Notes: generated by a model from the letters alone, not told the origin. A stretch of 64,000 nucleotides of DNA from a virus (IMGVR_UViG_3300023184_004591:31293-95292); one strand, 5' to 3'. Positions 8,952 through 37,649 are shown, counted from the first letter of the stretch. Translations and numbers: made by a program.

Positions 8952-9833
8952 TTAACAAGGAGGATTTAATAATGTGTATTCGGTAATATAACCTGAGTTA
9001 TCAATAACAACCCAATGTAATTCTGATAACGGTGTGACTCCCCCTGTAGTTACAATATAATTTCCTGGTTCAAATCGGTAATTATAATCATAATAATAAC
9101 CAACATATGTACCAACTTGTAATGGTAGATTAGTTAAACCGATAATTCCAGACCAACTAGCTCCCCCATTGTAAGTTTCACATACAACAGTTTCTGAGGA
9201 TAATGCATTAGGTACGGTATCTAAATTGGTGAATGGACCATCTAATGTATATCTATAACCATATTGAAAAGTTACATTATCATATAGACCTGTAGTTGTA
9301 GTTGTTGTTAAATTTTGGGTAGTAGTCGTAGTAATTGGTTCAGGTGTTGGAGTTGGCGGACAACAAGCCCTACAACTAGGACAAGGAGTTGTGGTTGTTG
9401 TGGTTGTTGTCGGGATACTTGCACAACAAGGAAAATCAACAACATAACAAGACTCATATGGAAGATCATCAGCAATGAAACTTTCCTGTACATTAATATA
9501 AAGTTTTTCTCTGATTGGTAAAATTAATGTACCATCCGAATTTCGTAATAAAAATTGACCTTCATATCTACCAACCTTTCTTGTATCATTTGATGTGAAT
9601 TGATAATAAACATAATACTCATACTCAGCATTCGGGTCCATTAATGTTTTCTCAACAAATCCTGCAGGTCTAGTAACAATTCTTGGAATTCCCGTTTCAG
9701 TGTCTACCATAGAAAAGAAGATAGAAGCTTCCTCGATCATTTCCATCATCTTGTTATAATCACTTCTACCGTCCTTAACGACTTGCATCTTTAAAACGGG
9801 CAACGTAGCATTTTTCTTAATGTAAAATTCCAT
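8952..9833 (-). CDS. Structural protein: BppU-like N-domain, Thr/Pro/Cys linker, variable C-domain
   Basis: MEFYIKKNATLP...YYQFTSNDT..VGRYEGQF resembles baseplate upper protein N-domains; poly-Thr/PT linker; TATTTAT upstream. Confidence 0.6.
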   Translation of the reverse strand: MEFYIKKNATLPVLKMQVVKDGRSDYNKMMEMIEEASIFFSMVDTETGIPRIVTRPAGFVEKTLMDPNAEYEYYVYYQFTSNDTRKVGRYEGQFLLRNSDGTLILPIREKLYINVQESFIADDLPYESCYVVDFPCCASIPTTTTTTTTPCPSCRACCPPTPTPEPITTTTTQNLTTTTTTGLYDNVTFQYGYRYTLDGPFTNLDTVPNALSSETVVCETYNGGASWSGIIGLTNLPLQVGTYVGYYYDYNYRFEPGNYIVTTGGVTPLSELHWVVIDNSGYITEYTLLNPPC

Positions 9834-9860
9834 TATTTGATTTTACAATAAATATTGCAA

Positions 9861-12260
9861 TTAACATTCTTTTCTCAATTTACCATCATAAAAATCAAAT
9901 CTATTGTGATCAGTTGGTGTTGAAAGTAATACGGAACCTTTTATATTACCCTTTACAGTTTCTTGATAACAATGGGACATAAGAGTTTGTTCGTATGGCA
10001 TACTAAATTTTGTTTTAAGATAACATTTATAGTTACCTTCTCTTGACATAACTATTGGCCAATTACATAAATAAATTTCACCTGTTGCATATGGAATCCC
10101 ATTGTAAGATTTGATGTGTTTAAATTCTAAATTAGGTGAGTTAGGATCTAAACCATGTTCCGGTAATCTTGGGTTATTTATCCAATGAGATTCCCTAAAA
10201 GATTGTGGGACATTATACCAAGACCATTGTTTAGTATGACTACCATAAAATTCTGTAAAGTTTAACTTTAAAAAATCAAAATTTTCATCCTTAACAATTT
10301 TTAAACTGTTATCAAATATGTTTTTAATTTTTCTAATAAAACCATTATTACAAGTAACTTCAGAACCATTATAAAAAAACATATCGTCCTCAAAAAAATA
10401 ATAATGACTTAAATTATTTTGTTCATCAAAATGTTCCGCAATAAATTGTCTACCACCTGTTATACCAATATTATCCTTTTTAATATGTTCAAAACCATAT
10501 TGATCACATAACTCAACATATCTTTGAGTTGTGGATAAATCAGTTGAATTGTTAAGTAAGTATTTTTTAGTTTTAGTTAAAAATGACTGGTCATATTCTA
10601 ACATAGATTCAATAAGAGTTTCAAATTGTTTTGGGGAATTAAACGTAATTACATATAACCCAATATCGCTACCAACACCGTTAATTTTTATTTTAGTTTC
10701 AACATCAATTGGTTTATCAAATTGAGTTAAATTTTCAAAAAACGGCCAAACTAAACCATTACTTTCAATTTCAAATCTATGAATTAACTCAGGATATTTG
10801 TGACATAAAATAGTGAATAAACATTCGTCGGCACCCATTAAATTATCCTTTAATGTTGATTCCATTATACCATAATATAATGAATTTATATTGTTTATTG
10901 TATCTTTATGACCACCAAAGAATCCTCCTCTAGCAACGTATTTAACAAAATCAGTATTACAATATTTTGCCATACTTTTTCGTTCAAATCCGTGAATCTC
11001 ATCATTGTATTCATATGGGTATGTTATATGAACATATTCTTTACCTAAAGATAACATATAATTTTCTAAATTATCTAAGACTTTTTCTTTAGTAAAATAC
11101 CCACTATCAACTGTATTTGTTAAACCACCATCAATCCAAAAAAAGTATTCAGAATTAAATGGATTAACAATTGAAGAATCATTTAACATAAACATTTTAG
11201 TAAACATCATTGGGTTATAATATTCTAATGATGCCTGAGGAGATTCTCCTAACCAACCAGCAAAATTTTTCCAACTGTCTGTATTACGTATTTCTTGGAT
11301 CTTATCAAAGAAAGGATTCCAAGATTTAAAGTCTTCTAAATTTTTAATAAATATTTTTGTTGGTTTATTCCCTCTTATTTTTAATACCTCTTCCTCTAAA
11401 TCTTTAGGTATCCAAATACACATCTGTACATCTGTTTCTAAAAATTCAAAAAATCTATTTTTATAATATTCAAAATCTCTTTTTGCCCAACCATCAAGAT
11501 TACCTCTACCCATATCCCACAAACCAGTTACCATAGTAACATTTTGTTTTTTATTTTGTGATTCATAAACAGATTCTTTGGGGTATAAGAAATGATCCCC
11601 TCTTTGTTTTAAGTCAATATCGTTTATGTAATTACATTGTTCACAAAAATCATCTAATAATTTTTGAGATTCCTCATAGGTATATTTTTCCCACCAATTG
11701 TTCTCAAATTCAATAATTGGTTTTTGTTTTAAATTTTTTATTGTTTCTGTAAACCCTTTTAACACAAATAAATCTTCAGTTTCCGTATCTATTTTTAAAA
11801 TGTCAATTTTTTCTAAATTATACCTATGGTTAATATTATCAAAAAAATTAGTATTGATATTAGAATTTTCATCATAATTAATTTTAGATAAACCTAAATT
11901 GTAATTTTGGGTACCAACACTGTTTTCTATTTCGTATTGAAATGCACTATCATTAATTGTGAAACCTTTTACTCTATCTGACATTGCAATATTCTCAACC
12001 GTTATATGAGGTTGGTTTGAATATTTTTCATCTAAATATTTATATAGTTCAGGATGAACCTCAAATAATATCGCTCTTTTAATATCCAAAGATTTATTTA
12101 ATTCATCAAAATAAGTCCCACTATTTGCTCCAACATCAACCACAACTAAATCTTTTTTATCTTTTAGTTTTGATATTAATACACCTGTGGCACTATATAT
12201 GTGCATTTTTGAGTGATCATCCCATATTTTAATCTCATTATAATATTTTGTTTTTTCCAT
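9861..12260 (-). CDS. Three-domain fusion: FkbM methyltransferase + HtrL/YibB-type glycosyltransferase + GT-A-like domain
   Basis: VVDVGANSG...IDILKIDTE (FkbM); TMVTGLWDMGR...NPFNSEYFFWIDGG (HtrL/YibB); LYVITFN...GGRQFIAEHF...FFEDD (GT-A). Start placed at MEKTK (12260) rather than 12287. Confidence 0.75.
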   Translation of the reverse strand: MEKTKYYNEIKIWDDHSKMHIYSATGVLISKLKDKKDLVVVDVGANSGTYFDELNKSLDIKRAILFEVHPELYKYLDEKYSNQPHITVENIAMSDRVKGFTINDSAFQYEIENSVGTQNYNLGLSKINYDENSNINTNFFDNINHRYNLEKIDILKIDTETEDLFVLKGFTETIKNLKQKPIIEFENNWWEKYTYEESQKLLDDFCEQCNYINDIDLKQRGDHFLYPKESVYESQNKKQNVTMVTGLWDMGRGNLDGWAKRDFEYYKNRFFEFLETDVQMCIWIPKDLEEEVLKIRGNKPTKIFIKNLEDFKSWNPFFDKIQEIRNTDSWKNFAGWLGESPQASLEYYNPMMFTKMFMLNDSSIVNPFNSEYFFWIDGGLTNTVDSGYFTKEKVLDNLENYMLSLGKEYVHITYPYEYNDEIHGFERKSMAKYCNTDFVKYVARGGFFGGHKDTINNINSLYYGIMESTLKDNLMGADECLFTILCHKYPELIHRFEIESNGLVWPFFENLTQFDKPIDVETKIKINGVGSDIGLYVITFNSPKQFETLIESMLEYDQSFLTKTKKYLLNNSTDLSTTQRYVELCDQYGFEHIKKDNIGITGGRQFIAEHFDEQNNLSHYYFFEDDMFFYNGSEVTCNNGFIRKIKNIFDNSLKIVKDENFDFLKLNFTEFYGSHTKQWSWYNVPQSFRESHWINNPRLPEHGLDPNSPNLEFKHIKSYNGIPYATGEIYLCNWPIVMSREGNYKCYLKTKFSMPYEQTLMSHCYQETVKGNIKGSVLLSTPTDHNRFDFYDGKLRKEC

Positions 12261-12273
12261 ATATTTTGTATTT

Positions 12274-13260
12274 TTATACGTTACCAATATTTATATTTTG
12301 AATATGGGAGAACGATGTTACCACATATTCATTATTGTCTTTATTAGTTTTAAACTTTATTCTAGTTGATTTAGGTAAATCAAATGCTGGGTTAGATTTA
12401 AATGTATGTTCATTACAAATGAATGAAATTTTACTTTCATCCACACTAATAATATTTTTTACAAGTTCAGTAACATCCATTATTTTATCTTCAAAAACAT
12501 CTAACGATCTTCCCTCATCTCTTTGTTCTGCAAAATACCCAAATTTCGCATCAATAATTTCTATTTTTAAGTTAGATAAATCAGTACCATCATAAAAGTA
12601 TTTTGGAATAACTGTATAGTACGGATCCCATTCAAAATGAAACATTTCATATGGTTTAATACTTTCTTTAAAATTATTTGCTTCATGTAACCATGCCTCG
12701 CATGACCATCTTGATCCACCATAATAATCATTAAAAGGGATATTTTTTTGTACGTGTGTTGATTTCGTCCACCAAAAATTACCCCACCACCAATTACCAT
12801 TATTTGTTACACCAACAGTATCGTATTCGTCTAATTGTTTTACACATTTTTCCCAATTATCAATTAAAAAATATTCCAACATTTCAACCCAATTATTAAT
12901 ACCGTCAAATTTTAAATTACTAATTTCTTTTGTGTCAAAATTTTTGTATTTATTAAACACTCCTTTAGTGTGGAAATACAAAATTTTATAATCATCTCGT
13001 AATCTACTTAACTCATCAACTTTTCTCAATGCCATTATACCTTCACCCCAATTTATATCTGTATATTCAACAATATATTTAGGGTACTTAATCATAATAT
13101 CGTCTAACTTATCTTTTAAGGTATTTGTTGTGTCCGTAACAAAAAGATATAATTCGTCCGCAGATTCATATAAACCTGAATCATAAACTCTTTTAATTTG
13201 ATTGGTTAATTTTTCTTCCCAATCATTAATCATAAAACAATATGAAATAACCGCTACCAT
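12274..13260 (-). CDS. Putative glycosyltransferase-like protein with a small C-terminal beta domain
   Basis: ILYFHTKGV...WWGNFWW..S...R...EAW pattern common in viral glycan clusters; C-terminal IIDAKFG...DVT segment is lectin-like. Confidence 0.55.
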   Translation of the reverse strand: MVAVISYCFMINDWEEKLTNQIKRVYDSGLYESADELYLFVTDTTNTLKDKLDDIMIKYPKYIVEYTDINWGEGIMALRKVDELSRLRDDYKILYFHTKGVFNKYKNFDTKEISNLKFDGINNWVEMLEYFLIDNWEKCVKQLDEYDTVGVTNNGNWWWGNFWWTKSTHVQKNIPFNDYYGGSRWSCEAWLHEANNFKESIKPYEMFHFEWDPYYTVIPKYFYDGTDLSNLKIEIIDAKFGYFAEQRDEGRSLDVFEDKIMDVTELVKNIISVDESKISFICNEHTFKSNPAFDLPKSTRIKFKTNKDNNEYVVTSFSHIQNINIGNV

Positions 13261-13263
13261 ATA

Positions 13264-13911
13264 TTACATTTTTTTAAAATAATCCCCAATACTAAATTTG
13301 GTATTGGTATTTATTGATCCTTTATCGTTAGGTATAAATTTATTTATATCAACTAACCTAAAATCTATTGATACTCTAGTTTTACCACTATTATTTAATT
13401 TATTACCGTGAATTTTATTAGCTCCATCAAAAACTAAAATTTCACCATAATTTACACAATACGGATAATAATCACCTTTATCCTCCTTACTTTCACACCA
13501 TATCGTATTTTGTTCGTTAGTGTCCATAAAGGGTAACCAAAAATTAACTTCAGTTATTGAATGATTATATGTCTTATCTTTGTGCCACTCCCCCACGGCA
13601 ACATTACCATCGGATAATTGTACTCTAAATGTTGGAATACTTTGGTATATGATTTCATCATATTCAAAAGTTTCTTTTAAGTGTTTAATTAATTCCAAAT
13701 ATAGAGGTTCTACTTTTTCTTTAAACTTAGTATAGTATTTTTTATGCCAAATTGTAGATTGATCATCTTCTCTCTTAAGTAAATCATAATTTTTTATTAA
13801 GTGAATGTCTTCTAAATCAAATTCATTAATATCTAAAATCTCCCTAATTATTTCCTTAAACGGGAATTTGTTCACATCGTATTGTATTTTATATGGGGTT
13901 GAGAGGTACAT
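13264..13911 (-). CDS. 2OG-Fe(II) dioxygenase (StrG-like)
   Basis: PTFRVQL, WHKD (HxD), NFWLP, HGN...TRVSIDFR. Confidence 0.75.
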   Translation of the reverse strand: MYLSTPYKIQYDVNKFPFKEIIREILDINEFDLEDIHLIKNYDLLKREDDQSTIWHKKYYTKFKEKVEPLYLELIKHLKETFEYDEIIYQSIPTFRVQLSDGNVAVGEWHKDKTYNHSITEVNFWLPFMDTNEQNTIWCESKEDKGDYYPYCVNYGEILVFDGANKIHGNKLNNSGKTRVSIDFRLVDINKFIPNDKGSINTNTKFSIGDYFKKM

Positions 13912-13914
13912 ATT

Positions 13915-15240
13915 TTATTTTTTTATGATCACACTAGTTATACTCCAATCGGGTCTGTTTTGATATATCTCAACCGATAAGATATTCTCATTTAAATAAG
14001 TGATGTCATCTTCAGTTAAATAATCAGATTGTATTTTACCCGTTGATATGAAATTTTTTAACATATCTAATGTTATTGTTTTTGTTGGGTCTCCCCACCC
14101 ACACCAATCCTTTTCAGGCATCAGAGCTTCTAAACTAGTATGTAAGTCCTCAAGTACATATATTCCCCCTGACTTTAATGTTTTAAATAATTTTGACAAT
14201 GTGATTTGTTGATCGTACATTCTATGTGAACCATCATCTAATATAACATCAATTTCATTATATTGGTTTGAGAATGATTCCAACATTTCAGGATTTGATT
14301 GGTCAATATTAATTAACTCAATACGATCTAAATTTTTATCACCTAAGTTTTTTTCACAGAAAGGTAAATTATTATCTAACCCTAAAACTTTTGAATTTTT
14401 AAAATAGTCTCTCCACATTAAAATAGATCCTCCATGATTTACACCGATCTCAACAAATGTTTTAACTTTTTCTTTAATAGGTAAAAATAAATCATCATAA
14501 ATCAATCTTAAATAATTGTGTTCATAATGTTTATCGGTATCATAATATTCTACAATATCAGACAATTTTTCACCATCAGGTATTTCTATATTAAAAATAT
14601 CATAATAACATTTATCAATAGTTCTATTTGGTAACATACCGTAAGAAAAGGCATGAAATATAAAATTTTTATTTATTTTATTTTTATACTCATTCCCATT
14701 TAATACTTTATTTGTAATTAATTTAATATTTGATTTAGAATCAACCATAACATCCATTAAATGCCCAAAACAAGTTTGGTCGTGCCATAATCCCGTTTTA
14801 TAGTATCCAAGTTCATTATTTGGTCCACCCAATAAATTATCACCTAACTCCCACCATTTATTCATTACTTGTTTTGTCCAATCCGAATTTTTCATCAAGA
14901 AAACGCCCGCATTTAATTTACTAGGTCCGTAATCTTCAGTACATATAATATTGTAATCTGGGTCAATAAAATCTTCTATACTATAAGTAAAATCACATAC
15001 TATCGCATCCGCATCTAAAAAAAGAATGTAGTCAGGGTTATATAATTCAAAAACCTCATTAATAAATTTTGGTTTATACCAAGTTGGGGATCTTCCCTCT
15101 AATGCGGTTTTTATTTTATTATCATCAGATTCTAAATGATAAATGTATCCCTTTTCATCACAATATTTTTTATTTATTTCTTTTGTGAATTTACCATAAC
15201 TAAGGTTAGTGGTAAAAAATTGAGCAATAACTATTTTCAT
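13915..15240 (-). CDS. GT34-like glycosyltransferase fused to a class I SAM sugar O-methyltransferase (MycE-like)
   Basis: WYKP...ILFLDADA...LNAGVFL...WHDQT (GT34-like); TDK..HNY..Y, VEIGV, ILDDGSH, YVLEDLH (methyltransferase). Confidence 0.8.
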   Translation of the reverse strand: MKIVIAQFFTTNLSYGKFTKEINKKYCDEKGYIYHLESDDNKIKTALEGRSPTWYKPKFINEVFELYNPDYILFLDADAIVCDFTYSIEDFIDPDYNIICTEDYGPSKLNAGVFLMKNSDWTKQVMNKWWELGDNLLGGPNNELGYYKTGLWHDQTCFGHLMDVMVDSKSNIKLITNKVLNGNEYKNKINKNFIFHAFSYGMLPNRTIDKCYYDIFNIEIPDGEKLSDIVEYYDTDKHYEHNYLRLIYDDLFLPIKEKVKTFVEIGVNHGGSILMWRDYFKNSKVLGLDNNLPFCEKNLGDKNLDRIELINIDQSNPEMLESFSNQYNEIDVILDDGSHRMYDQQITLSKLFKTLKSGGIYVLEDLHTSLEALMPEKDWCGWGDPTKTITLDMLKNFISTGKIQSDYLTEDDITYLNENILSVEIYQNRPDWSITSVIIKK

Positions 15241-15241
15241 A

Positions 15242-16489
15242 TTATAAATTACCTGTTAATCTATCACACCACCCTTTTGATATTGAGTGAGGCCATACAA
15301 CCCAATAGGTTGGTTTATCTGTAGCATTAAATTCTCTCCATACTTTACAATAACCATCAGGATCATTTTTCATCCTATTAATTTCATTAATATCGGCATC
15401 TAATCTATATAACGTTTCATCTTTTGAATTATGGAAGGCAACAACCCAAAAATCATAATCGGGTTCAGGTACACTACCATAATGAACATCAATACAATGT
15501 TTAAATATTGAAGAAAAGGAATCTTTCCATTCTTCTTCTGAACTATATGTATAAGGATTTGGTGGGTATTGTTTATCTAATGTGTATTGTTGTACCGCTC
15601 TTTTTGAGAATAATACACCAGAATATTTTTCATAGTCTTGTACTGTTCTTTCAGTACCTAATCCATAGATACCAAAGTCACTATCAGGAGTTTCACCATC
15701 AACACCTAATAATTGTCTATTTTTTTGGTGACATCTTTCGTTTCGTTTTCCCCAATCTTTATCATCATCCCATTGTTTTGTTCTACCCTTACGAGTATAT
15801 TCGTGCCAAATGACCGTTTTATGTGGGTGGAATAGATCATATCCGTGAGTATATGCTCTTACTGCAATTGAGATTTCTTCTCCATGAAAATAAAACTCAG
15901 GATCATGTTGTACCTCAGTTGAAAATTGACCTAAAGTAAAACAAAAGTGTGCCGAATAAAATCTTGAGGGAATTGGTTCTTTTAATTTATCCCAACCTGG
16001 TATTGTTTCAGGTAAAAAGAAAACACAACCTTCAGGTGTAAATCTATCGAAAGACATTCTCCACGGCTCCTTAACTCTACCTTGTGGGTCATTATCGGGA
16101 TCAAAAGAAGAAACATATCCTGTTAATAAAGGTTTTTTGTATCCTTTCTTTTGTAACTGTTTAATCATTTTAATTAAAGTGTCATCCCAATCCTTTTCAA
16201 ACCTCATATGTGAGTCAATCTGTAAAGTATATTCTTCACCTTCATATACTTGTTGAGTTAAATGTCTTGCCCAACAAACACCTGTCGATTCCGTATATGG
16301 AATATTTAAGATTCTGAATCTATCATCATTTTCATATTCTGACAGATCATCAAAACCATCTTCAGGGTGGAATTGTCTTGCAATACCAAGTCTAATGTTT
16401 TTTGGTTTTTTTGCCTTTTCCAACATATCTTTAATTGTTGGTATTAATTGTGGGTCCCTATAGGACGCAATTTGTACAAATATTCTCAT
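15242..16489 (-). CDS. GT60-family (Skp1-hydroxyproline/polypeptide) N-acetylglucosaminyltransferase
   Basis: IFVQIASYRDP, GVCWARH, LQIDSHMRF (DxH), YFHGEEISIAVRAYTHGYDLFHP, WHEY: the characteristic GT60 motif series. Confidence 0.85.
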   Translation of the reverse strand: MRIFVQIASYRDPQLIPTIKDMLEKAKKPKNIRLGIARQFHPEDGFDDLSEYENDDRFRILNIPYTESTGVCWARHLTQQVYEGEEYTLQIDSHMRFEKDWDDTLIKMIKQLQKKGYKKPLLTGYVSSFDPDNDPQGRVKEPWRMSFDRFTPEGCVFFLPETIPGWDKLKEPIPSRFYSAHFCFTLGQFSTEVQHDPEFYFHGEEISIAVRAYTHGYDLFHPHKTVIWHEYTRKGRTKQWDDDKDWGKRNERCHQKNRQLLGVDGETPDSDFGIYGLGTERTVQDYEKYSGVLFSKRAVQQYTLDKQYPPNPYTYSSEEEWKDSFSSIFKHCIDVHYGSVPEPDYDFWVVAFHNSKDETLYRLDADINEINRMKNDPDGYCKVWREFNATDKPTYWVVWPHSISKGWCDRLTGNL

Positions 16490-16548: not shown

Positions 16549-19500
16549 TCATTTACAAGGGAAAGATACATTACATGATGCACAATTGTTTGTTCCCGAC
16601 CAATCTATCCCAGCACCAACTGCAGTTCCTGTTGATGTTGATATTGTTGTCCAACATTGACTACCTTGAGTAACAATTTGACCCGCAATGGTTCCTACTG
16701 GTAAAATAATTATTCTGTCGGCAAGAACTCCACAACAGTGTGCAACTAACCATTTAACACCACCTGTTGTTGTTGGTGTAATTGTAGGTGTTGGAGTTGG
16801 CGTTGCAGTTTTCGTAGGTGTTGGTGTCGGTGTTGGACATGGGTTTGTAGTCAGACAAGTAGCACAACTACTTCCGTATGATACATTATTCCAAGTTAAT
16901 GTTGCAGGTCCTGCAATTGTACCAGAAATTTGATAACAGTTATTATTAATGTCAGTAACTACGTCACCGATCGCAAATGATGACGGTAAACTAATAATAC
17001 CATCAGGGTCCGCATTACAACAAGGTTTCACAAAGAAGAATGAGTAGGATGTGGTTGGTGTTAGAGTTAATGTTGGTGTTAATGTTGGTGTTGAAGTTCT
17101 CGTTGGTGTTGGTGTTAATGTTTTAGTTAGTGTTGGTGTTGGTGTTGGACATGCAGGGCAGAAAGTACATCCTAAACCATCGATATCATTTCCATATACA
17201 GAACCATTCCATGTTACTGTTGCAGGTCCTATAACAGTTGATGAAACCACATAACAGTTACCGTTTGTTGCTCCAACAACATATAAAATGTCAAGATTCA
17301 CATATATTGCAGGTAAGTAAAGAACCGCAGTGGATCCATCACAACATGATGTTCCTAATCCCCAAGTGTATTCTGTGGTTACCGTTGGTGTATTAGTCGG
17401 TGTTGGTGTTAACGTAGGTGTTGAAGTTCTTGTTGGTGTTAATGTTGGAGTTAACGTAGGGGTTAACGTAGGTGTAGAAGTTCTTGTTGGTGTTAATGTA
17501 GGTGTTAACGTTGGAGTTGAAGTTCTTGTTGGTGTTAATGTTGGGGTTAACGTAGGTGTAGAAGTTCTTGTTGGTGTTAATGTTGGTGTATTAGTCAATG
17601 TCTGAGTCAGCGTTGGTGTTAACGTTGGTGTTAATGTAGGGGTGTTAGTTAAAGTCTGAGTTAATGTAGGTGTTAATGTTGGGGTTGAAGTTCTTGTAGG
17701 GGTTAACGTAGGGGTATTAGTCAATGTCTGAGTTAATGTAGGTGTTAATGTTGGGGTTGAAGTTCTTGTAGGGGTTAACGTAGGGGTATTAGTCAACGTT
17801 GGAGTTAATGTTGGAGTTAACGTAGGTGTATTAGTCAAGGTCTGAGTTAAAGTTTGGGTCAATGTTGGGGTATTAGTCAACGTTGGAGTCAATGTAGGGG
17901 TTGAGGTTCTTGTTGGGGTTAATGTTGGCGTTAACGTAGGGGTGTTAGTTAACGTTTGAGTTAATGTAGGTGTTAATGTTGGTGTACTAGTTAATGTCTG
18001 AGTCAACGTTTGAGTTAACGTAGGTGTATTAGTTAAAGTTTGAGTTAACGTAGGGGTTAACGTAGGTGTGTTGGTTAAAGTTTGGGTCAACGTTGGTGTT
18101 AACGTAGGTGTTGAAGTTCTTGTTGGTGTTAATGTTGGAGTTAATGTTGGTGTATTAGTCAATGTCTGAGTTAATGTTGGTGTTAATGTAGGGGTATTAG
18201 TTAATGTCTGAGTTAACGTTGGTGTCAATGTAGGTGTTGATGTTAACGTTGGTGTCAATGTAGGTGTTGATGTTAATGTTTGAGTCAGGGTTTGAGTAGG
18301 TGTTGGCGTTGGTGTCAATCCTATTGTTGAGGTTAAAGTTTGTGTTAATGTAGGTGTAGGTGTTGAGGTTAAAGTTTGAGTTAATGTAGGTGTATTGGTT
18401 AGAGTTGGTGTTAACGATCTTGTTAATGTTGGGGTATTAGTTAATGTCTGACTTAAAGTCTGAGTCAATGTTGGAGTATTAGTTAAAGTTTGAGTCAATG
18501 TTGGAGTTAACGTTGGTGTGTTAGTTAAAGTTTGAGTCAATGTCTGAGTCAATGTAGGGGTATTGGTTAATGTCTGAGTTAACGTTGGTGTTAATGTAGG
18601 AGTATTAGTTAATGTTTGAGTCAACGTTTGAGTCAATGTAGGGGTTGAAGTTCTTGTTGGTGTTAACGTTGGTGTTAACGTAGGGGTGTTAGTTAACGTT
18701 TGAGTTAATGTTGGAGTTAACGTCGGGGTATTAGTTAATGTCTGAGTTAATGTTTGAGTCAATGTAGGGGTGTTAGTCAATGTTGGAGTTAACGATCCTG
18801 TTAACGTAGGGGTGTTAGTTAACGTTTGAGTTAGAGTTTGTGTTAATGTAGGGGTGTTAGTTAAAGTTTGAGTCAATGTAGGAGTATTAGTCAACGTAGG
18901 CGTTAACGATCTTGTTAATGTTGGAGTATTAGTTAAAGTTTGTGTTAATGTAGGTGTTAATGTTGGTGTGTTAGTTAACGTTTGAGTCAACGTTGGCGTG
19001 TTAGTTAATGTTTGGGTTAATGTAGGGGTTAATGTGGGGGTTGAAGTTAACGTTTGAGTTACCGTTTGAGTTAACGTTGGGGTATTAGTAGGTGTCTCCG
19101 TAGGTGTTGGTGTTGGAGTATTTGTAGTATTTGATGTTCTTGTTAACGTTGGTGTGTTAGTAAGAGTAGGCGTAGGGGTTGAAGTCAACGTTTGTGTTAA
19201 CGTAGGAGTTAAGGTTGGGGTTGAAGTTAACGTTTGTGTTAACGTAGGAGTTAGAGTTGGAGTTGAAGTTAACGTAGGTGTTAATGTTGGAGTTAATGTA
19301 GGGGTGTTAGTCAATGTCTGAGTCAACGTTGGGGTTGAAGTTCTTGTTGGAGTTAATGATCCTGTTAACGTAGGAGTGTTAGTTAAAGTTTGGGTTAATG
19401 TAGGTGTTAGAGTTGGGGTACTGGTTAAAGTTTGAGTTAATGTTGGGGTATTAGTTGAAGTTAACGTAGGGGTATTAGTTAATGTCTGAGTTAAAGTTTG

Positions 19501-20835
19501 AGTCAATGTTGGAGTTAATGTTGGGGTATTAGTCAATGTTTGGGTTAATGTAGGTGTTAGAGTTGGGGTTGAAGTTAACGTAGGTGTTAACGTAGGGGTT
19601 AGAGTAGGTGTTGAAGTTCTTGTTGGTGTTAACGTAGGGGTTAATGTAGGGGTGTTAGTTAAAGTTTGAGTCAACGTTGGTGTTAACGTAGGTGTTAACG
19701 TCGGAGTATTAGTTAATGTCTGAGTCAATGTCTGAGTCAACGTTGGGGTTAACGTAGGGGTATTAGTTAATGTTTGGGTTAACGTAGGGGTTACCGTTCT
19801 TGTTAAAGTAGGGGTATTAGTTAAGGTAGGAGTTACAGTTCTTGTTAACGTAGGGGTATTGGTAGGAGTTGAAGTTCTTGTTGGTGTTACAGTTTGAGTT
19901 AACGTAGGGGTGTTAGTTAATGTTTGGGTTAATGTCGGAGTTAACGTAGGAGTATTTGTTAACGTCGGAGTATTAGTCAATGTCTGAGTTAACGTTTGTG
20001 TTAACGTTGGGGTATTAGTAGGGGTATTGGTAGGCGTTGATGTTAAAGTTTGAGTTAATGTTTGAGTTAACGTAGGTGTATTAGTTGGGGTTGACGTAGG
20101 AGTTAACGTTGGTGTATTGGTAGGTGTTGATGTTAATGTTTGAGTTACCGTTTGAGTTAATGTAGGGGTGTTAGTTAAAGTTTGAGTTAATGTCGGAGTT
20201 AACGTAGGAGTATTTGTTAAAGTTTGTGTTAACGTTGGTGTATTGGTAGGTGTTGATGTTAAAGTTTGAGTTAATGTCTGAGTTAATGTTGGAGTTAAAG
20301 TAGGGGTATTAGTTAGAGTACTAATAGGTGTTGACGTTAATGTTGGTGTTAATGTTGGTATTGGTAAAATACAAGTATTCCCAATACATGGTGATCCATA
20401 ATTTAAAGTAACATTATCTAAATTAATTACATTACTACCACAATAATATACCGTAGAGTATCCAGGAACAAAAACATTCCCAATTACATTTCCAAAACAA
20501 TCAGTGTATGTGAATGATCCCCCACCATCATTATTACAAGAAACCGCAAGACAACAACAAGTACAAGGACCTGTTGCGGTTGGGGTTAATGTTGGCGTAT
20601 GGGTTGGTGTATTAGTTGGAACACATTGGTGATATTGGAATGTTTCACAATTTTGTGAATCAACTATTTTTACTAAAATTGGTGTTGTCTCATCTAATGG
20701 GGATGGAGAATAAAACGTTGTTGTTCCACCACCAAATGTCGTCGCATAATAACAATACGTATTTGTTACATCACACACATAAATATTATATGGAGGCGTT
20801 CCTGTTGATACGGATAATGTTATTTGATACGGCAT
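16549..20835 (-). CDS. Giant mucin-like Thr/Pro-rich virion fibre protein with Cys-rich C-terminal modules
   Basis: 1428 aa: small Cys-containing N-domains, ~1000 aa of [16 protein letters not shown] repeats, then three CC..C[YW]..CxxC..C modules. No signal peptide; TATTTAT upstream. Confidence 0.85.
17375..20360 (-). repeat. Low-complexity coding repeat (Thr-X)n
   Basis: ~3 kb of degenerate 6/12-nt-period repeats, extremely G+T-rich on the + strand, with local exact duplications (30-nt period near 18212-18271; ~72-nt period near 17654-17796). Confidence 0.95.
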
Positions 20836-20912: not shown

Positions 20913-22898
20913 TTATGAACAATTATGAATCGCAGTACATTCTGGACAATCAATATATTCTGTAATTGTACCTAAAAATAAGGTTGATGGTCCCGAAGTT
21001 GGTGTACTATTTTCCCAACAAGTCCCACTATCACTATCATAAAAGTATGTCGGTAATCCATTTGATGGAACTAAAACTGTTTGATCTGGTTGCACCCCAC
21101 AACAATCAATTAGTTGAACATAGTTACAAACATTTTGACTGATACAACCATTACAATTATCGTATTGGGATTCCCATACGCTGAAGTTTGTTGTTGGGGT
21201 ATCTGTTGTGATCGAAACACAACTATAACAGTTTCCAACGGAGTCAGTATACCTCCTACCAATTGTGTATGATCCAAATGCAATTTCTGTAATCCCATTT
21301 TCACAACAAGATTCAAATAAATAATAATCAGGACAATTTCCAATATCCATCTGACAACTCTGACAACTATCATATTGGGCTTTAGGTATTATAATTAAAG
21401 GCCAAGTTGGTGTTCCAACTAAAGACCATCCAACAACTTCCCAACAAACACCATTTACATCACCAAATATTGTTCCCGTTGTTGGAACTTGCTCCATGAT
21501 GGCTACCTCAACCTGTAATAGGTCACAACAATTTCTAAGAGTGACATAAGCAAAATCAGGACAAGTATTTGAGTCCACACAATCAATACAATCAGTCGAA
21601 GGCGTTGTTAAAGTTATTTCATAATTTGTTGGTAATTCATATGCTTCCGATATAATAGTCCAACAAATTCCGTCCGAATCAACCCAAACCTCATCTATGG
21701 AGAGATCCAATGTTGTATGTATTACTTCTTGTGAGAAAATACCACAACAAGACTGAACCACCCAAACAGACGGACAATTGTTATTACTAATACAATCTTC
21801 GCAATTAGTATATCCTGTTGTTCCAATCGTAATTGTAGGGGCAGTTACAGGTGCGGATGTGCTTGAGTCAATACTCCAACAGAATCCGTAATCATCAACA
21901 AAATAATCACCAACTGTTAAACCTAATGATCCTGAAACATATTCCAAACCCTTAACACAACAATTTACAATATTAACATTATCAGGACAACGATTACTTG
22001 AAATACAAGATTCACAACTCTCATAGTTACTTACTAATGATCTAACACTATTTGGTGAGGTTGTTCCAGTACTTTCTATCTCCCAACAATTACCATCTGA
22101 ATCACTCCAAAATGACCCTATTGTTAAATTTGTCCCATTAATAATTTCGGTAACGGTTGGTTCACAACAATTTCTTAACAGATAAAATTCACCGTCAGGT
22201 ATTGAACAATTTTTTTCATAATTTAATGTATATGTAAAATTGGCAGGACCCTTTATTACGGAATTATGTGTAACGCTCATGCCAACAACAAAGAACACAT
22301 CACATGAATCGTAATATTGGGTGAAAGTATGTGAGAGATCAAAACATAATGTATTTTTGGCAAACCCGTACCTTGTCGGTGTAATAACTGACGTAAGTGG
22401 TATTCTTCCGGTTACTGATAAATCATGACATTGGTATAAAAATAAACTAATTACAAATGATGGAGGTATTCCACTATTTCTTATATCAAAATAAATGTTA
22501 CCACATAAATGTATTGTGTCTCCCGACCTAATGTCAACAGGGCAAGGTACCCCAACATTTGATATTGACTCAGGTATTGGAGGTACAGTACCTCCTTTAT
22601 ATGGTAAAGGAAAATCCCACGGACAACCATTCCATCCACAACCTTTACTAGCACCAACATATAATGAAGAAAATTTTGCAGAAGACGACGAAGGTGTGAA
22701 ATACCCCGAATTTGACGCAATTAACGTATTTTCCGTTGAGCACCCACCAATAAGTGATGCGACTTGAGATAACGTAGCTTTATATGATGATCCTGCAGGG
22801 TTTTGTGATGTGTCCCCCGTAATCACTATGTGTAGTATATCATCAAGTGATATACTTGGGGCTAATGTTCTATCTGTTAGTCTTTGGTAATTCGGCAT
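20913..22898 (-). CDS. Fibre-like protein with six tandem ~70-aa six-Cys modules
   Basis: N-terminus MPNYQRLTDRT...DDILHIV...SYKATLSQV; six CC-x-C[WY]-x-CxxC-x-C repeats between ~22185 and 20913. Confidence 0.8.
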   Translation of the reverse strand: MPNYQRLTDRTLAPSISLDDILHIVITGDTSQNPAGSSYKATLSQVASLIGGCSTENTLIASNSGYFTPSSSSAKFSSLYVGASKGCGWNGCPWDFPLPYKGGTVPPIPESISNVGVPCPVDIRSGDTIHLCGNIYFDIRNSGIPPSFVISLFLYQCHDLSVTGRIPLTSVITPTRYGFAKNTLCFDLSHTFTQYYDSCDVFFVVGMSVTHNSVIKGPANFTYTLNYEKNCSIPDGEFYLLRNCCEPTVTEIINGTNLTIGSFWSDSDGNCWEIESTGTTSPNSVRSLVSNYESCESCISSNRCPDNVNIVNCCVKGLEYVSGSLGLTVGDYFVDDYGFCWSIDSSTSAPVTAPTITIGTTGYTNCEDCISNNNCPSVWVVQSCCGIFSQEVIHTTLDLSIDEVWVDSDGICWTIISEAYELPTNYEITLTTPSTDCIDCVDSNTCPDFAYVTLRNCCDLLQVEVAIMEQVPTTGTIFGDVNGVCWEVVGWSLVGTPTWPLIIIPKAQYDSCQSCQMDIGNCPDYYLFESCCENGITEIAFGSYTIGRRYTDSVGNCYSCVSITTDTPTTNFSVWESQYDNCNGCISQNVCNYVQLIDCCGVQPDQTVLVPSNGLPTYFYDSDSGTCWENSTPTSGPSTLFLGTITEYIDCPECTAIHNCS

Positions 22899-22929: not shown

Positions 22930-23235
22930 TTATTGATCCTCGAAAAGATAAATATTTGCATCCATAAAAAGAAATCCTTCCCCAGATTGGAATAATTTAC
23001 TTTTTGATTCACCACAATTTAATATGAAAAATTCTTCACAACCATAGACATCAATTATTTTAATTCCTATTGCAGGAACGTTATTAAATTGGGAGGGTAT
23101 GTTTAATGTTATTGATGGTGGTATTGGGGTGTTTATGTACGCTAAAACCGCACATTGATTTCCGTACACATCACAGACATATATAACATAAGGTAAGGTT
23201 GCACCTGTAATACTATCAATTTGTAATACTAACAT
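22930..23235 (-). CDS. Small adaptor-like structural protein
   Basis: Paralogous to the mucin N-domain (PY.IYVCDV....C...IKI.D...CE.F); C-terminal KLFQSGEGFLFMDANIYLFE tail. Confidence 0.75.
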   Translation of the reverse strand: MLVLQIDSITGATLPYVIYVCDVYGNQCAVLAYINTPIPPSITLNIPSQFNNVPAIGIKIIDVYGCEEFFILNCGESKSKLFQSGEGFLFMDANIYLFEDQ

Positions 23236-23295: not shown

Positions 23296-23643
23296 TTATA
23301 CTATTCCCAATAATTCTATATATTTGTTGTATAAAAAATCATTTGAATCAAGTAAGTTACTTGTAAATTCTGTTCTGTTTAAAATAATATTTTTATATTG
23401 GTCATCATATGAAAATAATGATAGACTCATTTCATCCCAATTATTACAATTTAAGGGTAATTCTGAGTTAGTTTGAGTTTTAAAAGTTTCGGATGTCATC
23501 ATAGATAAAACATCGATTAATAACGTTTTAACTATTAAGTCATCCATTTTTTCAATATCAACTCTCATGGTCGAACTTTTATTTATTGTGATCCCGTTTT
23601 GATAAAGGGTTATTACTAATATATTCCAATCTGTATAATTCAT
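23296..23643 (-). CDS. Hypothetical protein
   Basis: 115-aa ORF 1 nt downstream of the large fibre gene. Confidence 0.65.
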   Translation of the reverse strand: MNYTDWNILVITLYQNGITINKSSTMRVDIEKMDDLIVKTLLIDVLSMMTSETFKTQTNSELPLNCNNWDEMSLSLFSYDDQYKNIILNRTEFTSNLLDSNDFLYNKYIELLGIV

Positions 23644-23644
23644 A

Positions 23645-27649: not shown

Positions 27650-27674
27650 TATCTTTTTTTATTTATAAATACTT

Positions 27675-27944
27675 TTATTCTACGATTATGTAGGCACCAT
27701 TTTCAGAAATTAATCGGTTTCCAAACTCATCGGTTATAACAGGTATACAAGGGACATTTAATATACACGTTTTATCATAAAACGGAATGTAAATTGTATA
27801 CGATCCACGATAGTCCTCACTTATATAATTATATGGTAATGTTACGGTTCCAAGATCAATTACATTACCGTAACAATCGGTATGTATGATTTCGGATTGT
27901 TGTCCGATATAATTGTTTGTTAATATTTGTAAAACTGAACTCAT
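27675..27944 (-). CDS. Small adaptor-like structural protein
   Basis: Paralogous to the N-domain of 28605..30488 (I...NY.G...VI.LG.VTLP...G.YTI); C-terminal ITDEFGNRLISENGAYIIVE tail. Confidence 0.75.
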   Translation of the reverse strand: MSSVLQILTNNYIGQQSEIIHTDCYGNVIDLGTVTLPYNYISEDYRGSYTIYIPFYDKTCILNVPCIPVITDEFGNRLISENGAYIIVE

Positions 27945-28582
27945 TAATAAGTTTTATTTAATGTAAATATCTCTGAATAAATTGAGTTTCCTGCATTGTT
28001 AGTGTTCCACTGAGCGGTGATGACAAGTGTATTATCTATTGTAGTATCAAAAGTTGTATCGTTTACTACACTAAAATTTACTCCTTCAAAGTTAAGACCT
28101 GAATTCTTAGTATAAGCGAATAATCCTCCCGATACTATTGATCCTACTGTTGCCACCCCTATTCGTCTTACAGTAAAATTAACATCTAGTTTCCAATGTT
28201 TATTTGTGGCGGTCTCCATCGCCATTACTCCTGTATCTGCTAACAATATGCCTGAAACAGTTTTAATTCTAATATGTAAAGTAGCGGCACCAACACAAGA
28301 TATATGTCCTATTAATACTCCATGAAAACTATCACCAACACTGAACCCATTTTCAGGAATTGTAATAGATCCTACACCATTATTTATTAATGTCGACTCA
28401 ACGGTTGTGGCACTTACCGCAACGCTGGTTCCTGTTTGACTAAATAACCCATAAACTATTGGCAGGGGTGATAATGTAGATTGTTTTATTTTATATGTGG
28501 TTCCCGAATACTCAACAACAAACTCAGAGTTTGCAGTTACTGCGGTTAATTCGGGTAATGAGGATATTGGTAAATCTGGCAT
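27944..28582 (-). CDS. Short fibre/decoration protein
   Basis: N-terminal MPDLPISSLPE...TTYKIK followed by a single beta-sandwich; TATTTAT upstream. Confidence 0.7.
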   Translation of the reverse strand: MPDLPISSLPELTAVTANSEFVVEYSGTTYKIKQSTLSPLPIVYGLFSQTGTSVAVSATTVESTLINNGVGSITIPENGFSVGDSFHGVLIGHISCVGAATLHIRIKTVSGILLADTGVMAMETATNKHWKLDVNFTVRRIGVATVGSIVSGGLFAYTKNSGLNFEGVNFSVVNDTTFDTTIDNTLVITAQWNTNNAGNSIYSEIFTLNKTY

Positions 28583-28604
28583 TTCTTTTTATTTTATAAA
28601 TAGT

Positions 28605-30488
28605 TTATGTTATCATAATCTTTGATCCATCTGCCTGTAGAACAAAGAATCCATCGGATTGTAATAAATAGTTTATTATATTTGTCGGTGTTGGTGTTAA
28701 TGTCGGTGTTAAAGTAGGTGTGTTAGTTAAGGTCTGAGTCAATGTCTGAGTTAACGTTGGTGTTAAGGTAGGCGTTAATGTTGGAGTTGAAGTTCTTGTT
28801 GGTGTTAACGTCTGAGTTAATGTTGGTGTCGGTGTTGAAGTTGGTGGGTTAAGAGGATCTATCAACTCAACGTATAGTAAATCATTATCACCAATACTTT
28901 GTGTTAAATTATAAATGTAAGTACTTGGTGGTGTTCCTGTGAAACCACTTATTAAGATTCCGTTTTCGTAAACATTAACTGTGTGGTTAGTACCACCTGT
29001 AACACTTATGATTAAGTAATCACCAGGAACGTTAGTATATAAGAATCCATTTCCACTTGTGTTTTGTAAAATTGGGTAATAGAAGTTAAATACCGCACTA
29101 AAATTACCACCTATTGAGGTTATCACTGAACCATCGGTATCGTAATTACTAACTAAGAAGTTTCTATATGGTGTTGGTGTAGGTGTTGGGGTTAAGGTTG
29201 AGGTTGGTGTAGGTGTTGGTGGATAACATGCATCTGTACAAATTACATACCCTGGTTCACCTGTTAAATCATATCCAGTTGGTACTTCAGGTATTAATGA
29301 TAAAACTTCAAAAGTATAACCACGATTTTCAGGGTTATTATAAAAATACCCAATAGTTAAAGGGGTTAATGATTTAACGTTAAATGTCCCAACGTTTGAA
29401 CAACCACCACCATAACAACCATACCCTGTTACTTCATAATAATATATTATTTGGGTTGAGGTTGGGGTAACTGTCGGTGTTGGGGTTGAGGTTAATGTTG
29501 GTGTTAATGTCGGTGTTAATGTTGGGGTTAATGTTGGTGTTAATGTTGGTGTTGACGTTAAAGTAGGTGTCGGAGTTAAAGTTGGTGTTGGTGTTGGTGT
29601 GTTTGTTATATAAACTATTTCATATGTGAAATCACAGTTCAATGTTGTTGGTGTTGGTGTTGACGTTAACGTTTGTGTTAACGTAGGTGTGTTAGTTGAC
29701 GTTAACGTTTGTGTTAATGTTTGTGTTAACGTAGGTGTGTTAGTTGGTGTTTGTGTTAATCCTGGTGTTTTTGTATGTGTTGGTGTTTGTGTACGTGTAG
29801 GTGTCACGGTTTGAGTTAACGTTTGTGTTAATGTTGGCGTTAATGTTGGTGTTTGTGTACGTGTAGGTGTCACGGTTTGAGTTAACGTTTGTGTTAATGT
29901 TGGCGTTAATGTTGGTGTTTGCGTAGGTGTTGCCGTTAACGTAGGCGTTGGTGTTAATGTTGCCGTTAATGTTAATGTTGGAGTTTGGGTAATAATACAA
30001 TAACCACTTGTTGTAGTTTGTGTTGGTCTTGGTGTTCTAGTTGGTTTTGGTGTTTTACTTGGTGAAGGACAACCACATGGATCCGTACACGTCGGATGAG
30101 GTGTGGATGTTACCGTTTGAGTTACCGTTTGAGTTACAGTAATTGTTGGTGTTGGTATACAAACATATCTTGTTTCAGTTGGTGTAACTGTTGGTGTTGG
30201 TGTAGCAGTCGGTGTTTTTGTTAATGTTGGTGTTGGTGTTGGTGTCGGAGTAGGTCTGACAACATTTAATATGTTTGGGCAATCATTATCAACACATTGA
30301 TCATTTAATACCAATATGGTGTAAGTACCATAAATTTCTCTTTGTGGATCAAGTAAAGATGGGTTAAATGTACATGGAAGTGTTACATTCCCCAAGTTAA
30401 TTACAACATTATCGTTGTCAGGTTTAAATAATATATTTGCAACCTCACCATCGTAATTAAAACTTTTTATTATTATGCTTTGACTCAT
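28605..30488 (-). CDS. Second mucin-like Thr/Pro-rich structural protein
   Basis: Several TPT/TQT tracts separated by small Cys domains; exact 66-nt tandem duplication at 29778-29909; C-terminal YLLQSDGFFVLQADGSKIMIT tail. Confidence 0.8.
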   Translation of the reverse strand: MSQSIIIKSFNYDGEVANILFKPDNDNVVINLGNVTLPCTFNPSLLDPQREIYGTYTILVLNDQCVDNDCPNILNVVRPTPTPTPTPTLTKTPTATPTPTVTPTETRYVCIPTPTITVTQTVTQTVTSTPHPTCTDPCGCPSPSKTPKPTRTPRPTQTTTSGYCIITQTPTLTLTATLTPTPTLTATPTQTPTLTPTLTQTLTQTVTPTRTQTPTLTPTLTQTLTQTVTPTRTQTPTHTKTPGLTQTPTNTPTLTQTLTQTLTSTNTPTLTQTLTSTPTPTTLNCDFTYEIVYITNTPTPTPTLTPTPTLTSTPTLTPTLTPTLTPTLTPTLTSTPTPTVTPTSTQIIYYYEVTGYGCYGGGCSNVGTFNVKSLTPLTIGYFYNNPENRGYTFEVLSLIPEVPTGYDLTGEPGYVICTDACYPPTPTPTSTLTPTPTPTPYRNFLVSNYDTDGSVITSIGGNFSAVFNFYYPILQNTSGNGFLYTNVPGDYLIISVTGGTNHTVNVYENGILISGFTGTPPSTYIYNLTQSIGDNDLLYVELIDPLNPPTSTPTPTLTQTLTPTRTSTPTLTPTLTPTLTQTLTQTLTNTPTLTPTLTPTPTNIINYLLQSDGFFVLQADGSKIMIT

Positions 30489-37648: not shown

Positions 37649-37649
37649 T

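Follow-up and report, generated by a model that had tools for sequence, protein, structure and literature searches.

Glycosylation of phage particles is, to our knowledge, thought to be rare and documented for few cultured phages (mycobacteriophages and, in the form of stained bands, XacN1). Mycobacteriophage glycosyltransferases are said to decorate the phages' own virion proteins, reportedly a finding of Freeman et al. from 2023 in Cell Host Microbe (cited in PMC12582341 and PMC12894461). The phages concerned are reportedly actinobacteriophage siphoviruses that use other glycosyltransferase (GT) families and capsid or tail-tube acceptors, and we know of no GT60 enzyme, giant Thr-X fiber, or hypervariable cassette bracketed by conserved enzymes in those systems. 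Here, we describe a candidate O-glycosylation island in a 64,000-nucleotide stretch of viral DNA (IMGVR_UViG_3300023184_004591:31293-95292, hereafter the window), in which the gene for a giant Thr-rich repeat protein, P0001, is followed by that for a GT60 glycosyltransferase, P0002, and by a tight row of further genes, P0003 to P0007. The window covers bases 31293 to 95292 of a single 95,292-bp viral record with a G+C content of ~30%; since CheckV puts the completeness of this record at ~32%, it represents part of the genome, roughly 300 kb in size, of an uncultured jumbo phage. A Megablast search with the 24-kb region against cultured phages returned no match.

For XacN1, at least two Schiff-positive glycoprotein bands were found among the virion proteins, and the authors proposed that the virion is glycosylated by the phage's own enzymes, with ORF334 as one of the two glycosyltransferases that they listed (PMC5852040). 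The general idea of phage-made virion glycosylation has therefore already been published, and virus-encoded glycosylation in PBCV-1 is cited in the same paper (PMC5852040). Sequence searches revealed ORF334 to be a GT60 homolog, a membership that its authors had not recognized. Homologs that are 43-48% identical to P0002 are found in XacN1 (46%), Xoo-sp13, and Stenotrophomonas CM1/RAS14, and both XacN1 and Xoo-sp13 resemble the island described here in that GT60 lies near the DNA polymerase gene and near the gene for a giant, baseplate-adjacent protein with Ser/Thr/Pro (S/T/P) tracts. However, the XacN1 GT60 gene adjoins a carbamoyltransferase gene instead of a Thr-repeat gene, and XacN1 is without a giant Thr-X repeat. 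We found no study in the literature dedicated to GT60 in phages or to Thr-rich phage O-glycosylation; what is new here is the assignment to GT60, the partnership with Thr tracts, and the architecture of the cassette, whereas virus-encoded virion glycosylation as such was already known.

Outside phages, the characterized GT60 enzymes are polypeptide alpha-N-acetylglucosamine (GlcNAc) transferases, whose acceptors are hydroxyproline in Skp1 or Thr in Trypanosoma cruzi mucins (PMC6939170, PMC3769586). With these protist enzymes (Gnt1 of Dictyostelium and Toxoplasma, pp-alpha-GlcNAcT of T. cruzi), P0002 shares PF11397, the DxH motif, and the GT-A fold; it is soluble like Gnt1, and it stands beside Thr-rich repetitive proteins like the T. 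cruzi mucin enzyme. It differs from them in being encoded by a phage, in carrying an extra beta-rich C-terminal domain of ~90 residues, and in having no conserved prolyl hydroxylase partner. The GT27 polypeptide N-acetylgalactosamine (GalNAc) transferases are similar to P0002 in the structure of the catalytic domain and in the combination of DxH with a distal His, but their sequence identity to it amounts to 10-15%, and P0002 is cytoplasmic, not Golgi-lumenal. Giant viruses offer a further parallel (PBCV-1 capsid, mimivirus fibrils), since they encode soluble multidomain GT/methyltransferase proteins and assemble the glycans of their virion proteins in the cytoplasm; in addition, mimivirus R699 is among the matches of P0006, and DUF8361-like relatives of P0005 occur in Nucleocytoviricota. 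Giant viruses differ in that their hosts are eukaryotic and in that neither a GT60 initiator nor a Thr-X repeat has been described there. The glycans of PBCV-1 are N-linked.

P0002 is a soluble GT60 enzyme with a modeled fold closest to GT27

P0002 matches the GT60 profile PF11397 with an E value of 5.1e-73 (247 bits, compared with a Pfam cutoff of 21), in agreement with a first-pass annotation of this DNA that had placed a GT60 gene 59 nt downstream of the repeat gene, and it matches phrog_24687 with an E value of 3.6e-168. The best-matching stretch spans positions 95 to 349 of the 352 in the profile, and another one covers the N terminus, as in its relatives. PF11397 is the only Pfam family found in P0002; neither a GT2 or GT27 catalytic model nor a ricin lectin domain was matched. 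DxH, a presumed metal-binding motif that is paired with a distal His as in GT27, corresponds to D92-S-H94 in P0002 and is present in 35/35 sequences, that is, in P0002 and 34 divergent relatives that are at most 45% identical to each other; across an alignment of 40 sequences, D92, H94, and H229 do not vary. When the AF2 model of P0002 (pLDDT 95.4) was compared with the PDB by Foldseek, ranks 1 to ~33 were all GT27 polypeptide GalNAc-transferases (E value of 1.6e-10). Likewise, VIA-align 2, run over 48,161 chains, aligned the model with GalNAc-T1 (Z 21.2, 278 residues, root mean square deviation of 3.7 Å) and with TgGalNAc-T3 from Toxoplasma (Z 19.5), while the next GT-A enzyme scored Z 17.0. 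These comparisons support a predicted GT-A fold that is closest to the GT27 mucin initiators, so that the GT60-GT27 kinship suggested in the first-pass annotation is recovered at the fold level. A sequence search of the PDB retrieved no GT60 structure.

Residues ~326-415 of P0002 form a confidently modeled, beta-rich C-terminal domain that lies outside the Pfam domain and is kept in full-length relatives. By analogy with the lectin domain of GT27, it could be an acceptor-binding module, with a fold that the structure searches barely tested. Environmental GT60 homologs fall into more than 7321 clusters at 90% identity, not all of which are necessarily phage genes, and into 4780 representatives at 50% identity, some of which contain two to four GT60 domains. 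Among the closest of these representatives are P0133, P0135, P0139, and others, giants of 1600-2460 aa in which as many as four GT60 domains stand in tandem.

The neighboring gene encodes a giant Thr-X repeat

P0001 is composed of an N-terminal anchor domain (residues 1-156), a Thr-X repeat (residues ~159-1154), and three Cys-rich modules with Pro-Thr (PT) linkers between them. The repeat of ~1000 residues that had been reported for this 1428-aa protein is real, with unbroken T-X runs totaling 978 residues. Its composition is dominated by Thr (49%), Leu (18%), and Pro (15%), followed by Gln (6%) and Asn (5%), and its charged residues are limited to 17 Arg and 1 Glu, with neither Lys nor Asp. 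At the DNA level, the repeats have periods of 42 and 126 nt and are old and degenerate; given that they are just 60-80% matched, we rejected recent slippage as their origin. The Cys-rich modules at the C terminus resemble the repeated modules of P0008, the product of the next gene, and it is this likeness, together with the position of the gene, that suggests a virion location for P0001. With Pfam at E values of up to 1, no match was obtained for the N- and C-terminal parts of P0001, for P0007, or for the 101-aa open reading frame (ORF) listed in Table 1.

The minus strand carries every gene between 33364 and 5920 in the ORF map of the window, and a block of tail and fiber genes on this strand ends with the island. 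P0001 is followed, in this order, by P0002, P0003, P0004, P0005, P0006, P0007, and a family B DNA polymerase gene; neighboring genes from P0002 to P0007 overlap or are 1-27 nt apart, and 98 nt separate P0007 from the polymerase gene. No hydrophobic segment is present in any of P0002 to P0006. A scan of the whole 95-kb record found strong Thr/Pro tracts to be confined to proteins of the minus-strand tail/fiber block: P0001, P0007, P0010, P0011, and a 1113-aa protein upstream of the window. The tracts that the first-pass annotation had noted in 8952-9833, 28605-30488, and 30491-33364, as well as the minus-strand coordinates that it gave for all ORFs, thus hold. In P0010, seven Thr-X/PT tracts separate small globular domains; P0011 has PT tracts at residues ~356-385; and in P0007, a conserved N-terminal region of ~140 aa precedes poly-Thr/PT tracts at residues 142-181. 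A virion location may also apply to P0007. P0011 further combines a Cys-rich, PT-linked middle part with a C-terminal papain-like cysteine peptidase, and it is kept at the upstream edge of the fiber block in many related loci.

Conserved enzymes bracket a hypervariable cassette in related loci

Close relatives were found in 381 stretches of IMG/VR, the best 80 of which (75-95% identical, on contigs of up to 272 kb) were analyzed; synteny was counted over the 64 non-redundant loci among these 80. The order is constant across the 64 loci: variable fiber genes, GT60, a variable cassette, an HtrL/GT-A protein, a P0007 homolog, and the DNA polymerase. The HtrL protein is kept in nearly all of them, and its HtrL+GT-A unit constitutes the conserved end of the island. 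Flanked by the HtrL protein and the DNA polymerase, the P0007 homolog is likewise present in nearly all loci, with lengths of 122-784 aa and often with T tracts. T-X tracts of at least 20 residues are encoded by the gene directly upstream of GT60 in 38/60 loci and by the next one upstream in 15/43, compared with 0/64 for either of the two enzyme genes that come next after GT60.

The gene upstream of GT60 often shares the N-terminal domain of P0001 and ranges from 98 to 1526 aa in length. At the short end are P0001 orthologs of 175 aa with a 28-residue tract (L005:5150-5677 and L006:690-1217), whose GT60 is 94% identical; at the long end are those of 1526 aa (L004:3021-7601) and 1428 aa (window 16549-20835), with tracts of ~1000 residues and GT60 identities of 94-95%. 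Tracts of 28 and of ~1000 residues at 94-95% GT60 identity mean that the length of the stalk is extremely labile.

The cassette between GT60 and the HtrL gene holds 0-8 genes, and its 306 proteins fall into 94 sequence clusters. Pfam assigned to them transferases of the GT25, FkbM, GT34, GT10, GT11, GT2, GT31, and PLOD-type GT families, together with carbamoyltransferase and DegT aminotransferase, and furthermore nucleotidyltransferase, epimerase, acetyltransferases, methyltransferases, and HAD hydrolases. An initiating phosphoglycosyl transferase, a flippase, or a polymerase was absent from the 25 families listed out of the 34 matched by the 94 cassette representatives. Such a repertoire marks a glycan that is built differently from one phage to the next.

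GT60 is linked to Thr/Ser/Pro tracts in divergent phages and bacteria

Every GT60 viral record tested bears T-X tracts. This includes five records that are tract-free within 10 kb of GT60, all of which (5/5) have T-X tracts elsewhere, while a reversed-pattern control gave one match in one of them and zero in the other four; the abundance of T-X tracts in GT60 records is far beyond chance. With the distant GT60 representative P0256 as the query, two viral loci were retrieved, of which 0/2 had an S/T/P tract within 10 kb and 1/2 had tracts elsewhere in the record. For the reverse test, IMG/VR was scanned with a pattern of ten alternating Thr codons. PF11397 was found in 12/41 of the tract-bearing viral records, in 9/17 of those of at least 100 kb, and in 2/8 of those at least 90% complete, fractions that are uncalibrated, given that they come with no background rate of PF11397 or of Thr-X tracts and are inflated by shared ancestry. 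The co-occurrence expected by the first-pass annotation is therefore one-sided: tracts accompany GT60 in all records tested, but 29/41 tract-bearing records, and 6/8 of the near-complete ones, lack GT60, which means that tracts do not need this enzyme.

The link also recurs in independent phage lineages. In a 229-kb record (L165) with a GT60 that is 40% identical, the gene sits between those of two (TP)n proteins, accompanied by adaptor-like ORFs and a Cys-module fiber. In Xoo-sp13 and XacN1, proteins of ~3250 and 3313 aa, respectively, are encoded beside the baseplate wedge genes, ~8 kb from GT60, and contain S/T/P-rich tracts that reach 93% (Xoo-sp13, near the C terminus) and 80% (XacN1) over 30 residues. 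GT60 relatives are also encoded at no fewer than 566 genome loci of many phyla in GTDB. Around these bacterial genes, S/T/P-tract proteins are enriched within +-3 genes of GT60 (23/387 ORFs, versus 2/367 farther away; odds ratio of 11.5, Fisher p of 1.7e-5), and the neighborhood is present in 12/34 GT60 clusters at 60% identity. VgrG spikes of type VI secretion, which are phage-tail-like and assembled in the cytoplasm, carry a C-terminal (TP)n near GT60 in Paraburkholderia, Ralstonia, and Paraherbaspirillum. These observations support a link between GT60 and Thr/Ser/Pro-tract proteins that recurs in divergent phages and bacteria.

The VgrG proteins of Paraburkholderia ferrariae (L282:13072-15558), Ralstonia sp. 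(L262:10267-13128), and Paraherbaspirillum soli (L241:11897-14383) each combine Phage_GPD, gp5 C-terminal, and OB domains with (TP)n tails of ~40-140 residues, three genes away from GT60. The closest GT60 matches from cellular genomes (58-67% identity; L216-L223) come from metagenome-assembled genomes of Saprospiraceae, Lewinellaceae, Cytophagaceae, and other Bacteroidota. Some of these contigs are 230-610 kb long and encode S/T/P-tract proteins beside GT60, one with a type IX secretion system (T9SS) sorting domain. These matches may hint at the host phylum, or they may be phage contigs binned into such genomes.

The remaining island enzymes

P0003 combines a GT34-like region (residues ~26-182; PF05637, E value of 3.3e-13, 50.4 bits with a cutoff of 23, partial coverage of profile positions 134-209 of 238) with an S-adenosylmethionine (SAM)-dependent methyltransferase at residues ~262-389, weakly matched by RMNT_CmcI/Methyltransf_24. 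Both parts had been predicted by the first-pass annotation, and the protein also matches phrog_21658 (E value of 1e-22). P0004, annotated there as a 2-oxoglutarate oxygenase, had no direct Pfam match, but a place in the PhyH family of dioxygenases is indicated by close relatives, which are named ectoine-hydroxylase-related/PhyH and of which the 69%-identical P0318 matches PF05721 (26.7 bits). An HxD...H motif was identified in P0004 by eye, and no homolog was detected among the 80 related loci. On the basis of these relatives, we rejected P0004 as a prolyl 4-hydroxylase; because this sole oxygenase is of the PhyH type and is not conserved, the hydroxyproline route known from Skp1 was rejected as a conserved mechanism as well. 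For P0005, the earlier description as a GT-like protein found no backing, since neither Pfam nor PDB sequence searches returned a match, even with a profile; homologs of P0005 occur in some related loci.

P0006 consists of an FkbM methyltransferase (residues ~51-220, E value of 1.8e-8), an HtrL_YibB domain (PF09612, residues ~249-503, E value of 1e-19, 71.6 bits with a cutoff of 24.1), and a second GT-A-like domain (residues ~540-795) with an invariant E632-D633-D634, which agrees with the FkbM-HtrL-GT fusion proposed before. Two domains are well predicted in its model, HtrL at 250-520 and the C-terminal one at 540-795, and its top matches are the tandem GT-A enzymes LH3, LARGE1, K4CP, COLGALT1, mimivirus R699, and PmHS2. 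The two-GT-A architecture is thus shared with LARGE1, K4CP, PmHS2, and LH3/COLGALT1 (E values of 5e-12 to 1e-8), several of which (LH3, COLGALT1, LARGE1) act on protein-linked glycans, but TM-scores stay at ~0.2 because the arrangement of the domains is different. P0006 is not a member of these families at the sequence level, and a polymerase activity would be pure conjecture.

Proposed mechanism and alternative explanations

We consider it probable, though far from certain, that the phage encodes here a cytoplasmic O-glycosylation island for the Thr(-Pro) tracts of its own appendage proteins, and for this scheme we infer the acceptor, the sugars, the order of the steps, incorporation into the virion, and the biological role. 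Fiber genes and the enzyme row would be co-expressed late in infection, and the soluble GT60 would put the first N-acetylhexosamine (HexNAc) on Thr hydroxyls of unfolded or extended Thr-X tracts, above all in P0001 but also in P0010, in P0007, and in the shorter tracts of P0011 and of tail proteins. By family precedent, this first sugar would be alpha-GlcNAc, with UDP-GlcNAc of the host as the donor. The chain would then be extended by the conserved two-GT-A HtrL protein, while the lineage-specific cassette (GT34+methyltransferase, PhyH dioxygenase, P0005, and FkbM domain) would add and cap further residues. O-glycosylation of the phage's own fibers had also been the proposal of the first-pass annotation, and the GT60 identity, the soluble, tight, codirectional gene row, the link to tracts, and the published staining of virions of XacN1, a cultured phage with a GT60 homolog, speak for it, but not for the Thr acceptor, the sugar, or the methyl decoration that it had named. 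The bottle-brush stalk of 250-300 nm that it envisaged, at ~0.25-0.3 nm per extended residue, is speculation, and its length would be an upper bound if the repeat were a folded beta shaft. By our own estimate, made by analogy with triple beta-helices, a folded P0001 shaft could be several-fold shorter.

Several observations weigh against this scheme. The phage and its close relatives have no known glycan, glycopeptide, or enzyme activity, the Schiff-positive bands of XacN1 were not identified and are not tied to ORF334, and P0001 is a putative virion protein by gene position and shared modules. The strict alternation and the 18% Leu of its repeat fit an amphipathic beta structure, and if the repeat does fold into such a shaft, it would be a poor substrate thereafter. 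The gene adjacent to GT60 is tract-free in 22/60 related loci, two records (L084 and L085) have no tract within 10 kb of GT60, and PF11397 is absent from most of the tract-bearing records described above, including the near-complete ones. Moreover, the phage loci share ancestry, and the synteny counts are therefore not independent events. Finally, GT25, GT10/11, and HtrL in the cassettes are best known from the synthesis of lipopolysaccharide (LPS) and lipooligosaccharide (LOS).

In a first alternative, the island glycosylates phage proteins, but with the long Thr-X repeat as a folded, probably trimeric, amphipathic beta shaft or a plain spacer instead of the (main) acceptor, and with the sugars on other sites such as short PT linkers, capsid or tail proteins, or hydroxylated residues. 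We regard this as unlikely. Apart from the strict alternation of Thr with hydrophobic residues and the near absence of charge, it is favored by the V, I, or M found at X positions in related phages, by the frequency of tracts without GT60, and by the 175-aa orthologs of P0001, which show that an almost identical enzyme does not need a giant repeat; the PhyH dioxygenase and the PLOD-type GT domains of some cassettes would hint at routes in which residues are hydroxylated and then glycosylated. However, the dioxygenase is not conserved, and the same TPTLTPT vocabulary recurs in the P0001 C terminus, P0010, and P0011, where it joins globular modules as short linkers that vary in length, which fits an extended spacer better. 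The Pro content of 15% and its irregular spacing also disfavor long regular strands, and Thr/Pro-rich extended peptides of this kind are what GT60 and GT27 act on (PMC3769586).

A second alternative, which we judge quite improbable, is that remodeling by the enzymes is aimed at glycoconjugates of the host (LPS/LOS, capsule, S-layer, or glycoproteins), which could serve to block superinfection or to keep progeny off debris, and that the neighborhood of fiber genes is incidental. Gene clusters for LPS/LOS and O-antigen typically contain HtrL_YibB, GT25, GT10/GT11, GT2, and FkbM, the cassette matches O-antigen loci in its hypervariability, and GT60 homologs occur widely on the chromosomes of many bacterial phyla. 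Yet the families listed include no initiating phosphoglycosyl transferase, flippase, polymerase, or ligase, all island enzymes are soluble, and the only characterized GT60 acceptors are polypeptides, in line with the modeled P0002 fold being closest to GT27. The S/T/P-tract link, in turn, holds in bacteria too, and in XacN1 it is the virions themselves that stain as glycoprotein. Still further down in plausibility, and very improbable in our view, is glycosylation of phage DNA at a hypermodified base against restriction. DNA-modifying phage glucosyltransferases are a known class (cited in PMC5852040), and the island abuts a DNA polymerase gene, but nucleic acid is not a known substrate of any GT60 member, and a hypervariable multi-enzyme cassette with fucosyl-, galactosyl-, carbamoyl-, and methyltransferases far exceeds the known DNA modifications, which involve one or two sugars. 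A search of the 95-kb record for PF00303 (thymidylate synthase/hydroxymethylase) was empty, which is weak evidence since the record is only ~32% complete. Both the host-glycan and the DNA alternatives fit the enzyme families and their contexts less well than modification of the phage's own appendages does.

It is tempting to speculate, as a possibility that we hold with considerable doubt, that the island is a "glycan serotype" locus with which freshwater jumbo phages modify their own fibers, and that it represents a more general cytoplasmic mucin-type O-glycosylation of phage-tail-like machines, a trait of prokaryotes and viruses that has so far gone unrecognized. The conserved GT60 initiator and the two-GT-A extender would then flank a cassette exchanged with the ease of bacterial O-antigen genes, and the acceptor stalk would range, even between near-identical phages, from tens of repeat residues to over 1300. 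VgrG spikes would be decorated by the same pairing of GT60 with (TP)n, the trait would be under diversifying selection, and the lineage carrying it would be very abundant.

Other features of the region

The coordinates of the island, its neighbors, and a second set of glycan enzymes are given in Table 1. The second set lies outside the island at 36434-47095 on the plus strand, interleaved with a PolB-exonuclease-like gene, a dUTPase gene, and PhoH, and it may feed the same glycan or another one. Its sulfotransferase is unusual in a phage. Elsewhere in the window (2560-3648, plus strand), a 362-aa protein has a C-terminal half that is an Fe/Mn superoxide dismutase (Sod_Fe_N, E value of 3e-20; Sod_Fe_C, E value of 2.5e-39), preceded by ~160 N-terminal residues without a family assignment. 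Promoter and terminator scans of the region gave match totals that were not above the shuffled expectation; the promoter-like site in Table 1, which lies in the 98-nt gap ahead of the DNA polymerase gene, is therefore a lead only, and possibly marks where the island's transcription unit ends.

TABLE 1 Coordinates in the window of the island genes, neighboring features, and the second glycan-enzyme set
Feature	Coordinates	Strand	Basis or remark
P0001, fiber-like, 1428 aa, proposed main acceptor	16549..20835	-	Composition, shared Cys modules, conserved N-terminal domain
P0002, GT60/PF11397 glycosyltransferase, soluble, proposed initiating polypeptide HexNAc-transferase	15242..16489	-	Hidden Markov model (HMM), fold, invariant residues
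P0003, GT34-like + SAM methyltransferase, variable cassette	13915..15240	-	PF05637, phrog_21658
P0004, PhyH-family Fe(II)/2-oxoglutarate dioxygenase, variable cassette member	13264..13911	-	Close relatives
P0005, 328 aa, DUF8361-like lead, variable cassette member	12274..13260	-	Homologs in some related loci
P0006, FkbM + HtrL_YibB + second GT-A-like domain	9861..12287	-	HMM and model
P0007, 293 aa, poly-Thr/PT tracts, possible second acceptor	8952..9833	-	Tracts, conserved position
Sigma-70-like promoter match, TTGACA-17-TATACT, 11/12, TG	8914..8942	-	Consensus match alone
P0008, fiber-like, 661 aa, repeated Cys-rich modules	20913..22898	-	Module likeness to P0001 C terminus
101-aa ORF, adaptor-like	22930..23235	-	In other loci, relatives form a fused N-terminal domain in Thr-X proteins
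P0010, 627 aa, candidate further acceptor	28605..30488	-	phrog_15511; seven Thr-X/PT tracts
P0011, 957 aa, short PT tracts + papain-like peptidase	30491..33364	-	phrog_16701, E value of 1.5e-56; Peptidase_C1, E value of 1.2e-5
GT (phrog_7162)	36434-37648	+	Second set
Methyltransf_24	39371-39964	+	Second set
GT92/GT2-like	39943-40662	+	Second set
Protein with two GT-A domains	40665-42170	+	Second set
Sulfotransfer_2 sulfotransferase	42173-42802	+	Second set
GT2	46289-47095	+	Second set

Implications

Cultured models are at hand in the GT60 genes and S/T/P-tract proteins of XacN1 and Xoo-sp13 and in the VgrG-(TP)n proteins encoded beside GT60 in Paraburkholderia and Ralstonia. If the proposed function holds true, a large and environmentally abundant group of jumbo phages would make mucin-like, strain-specific sugar coats on its fibers, and an enzyme family so far known biochemically only from protists would carry out the glycosylation of phage fibers. 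This would bear on adsorption, host range, stability, and the adhesion of particles in water, as well as on recognition by glycan-binding defenses and on the evolutionary origin of mucin-type O-glycosylation.

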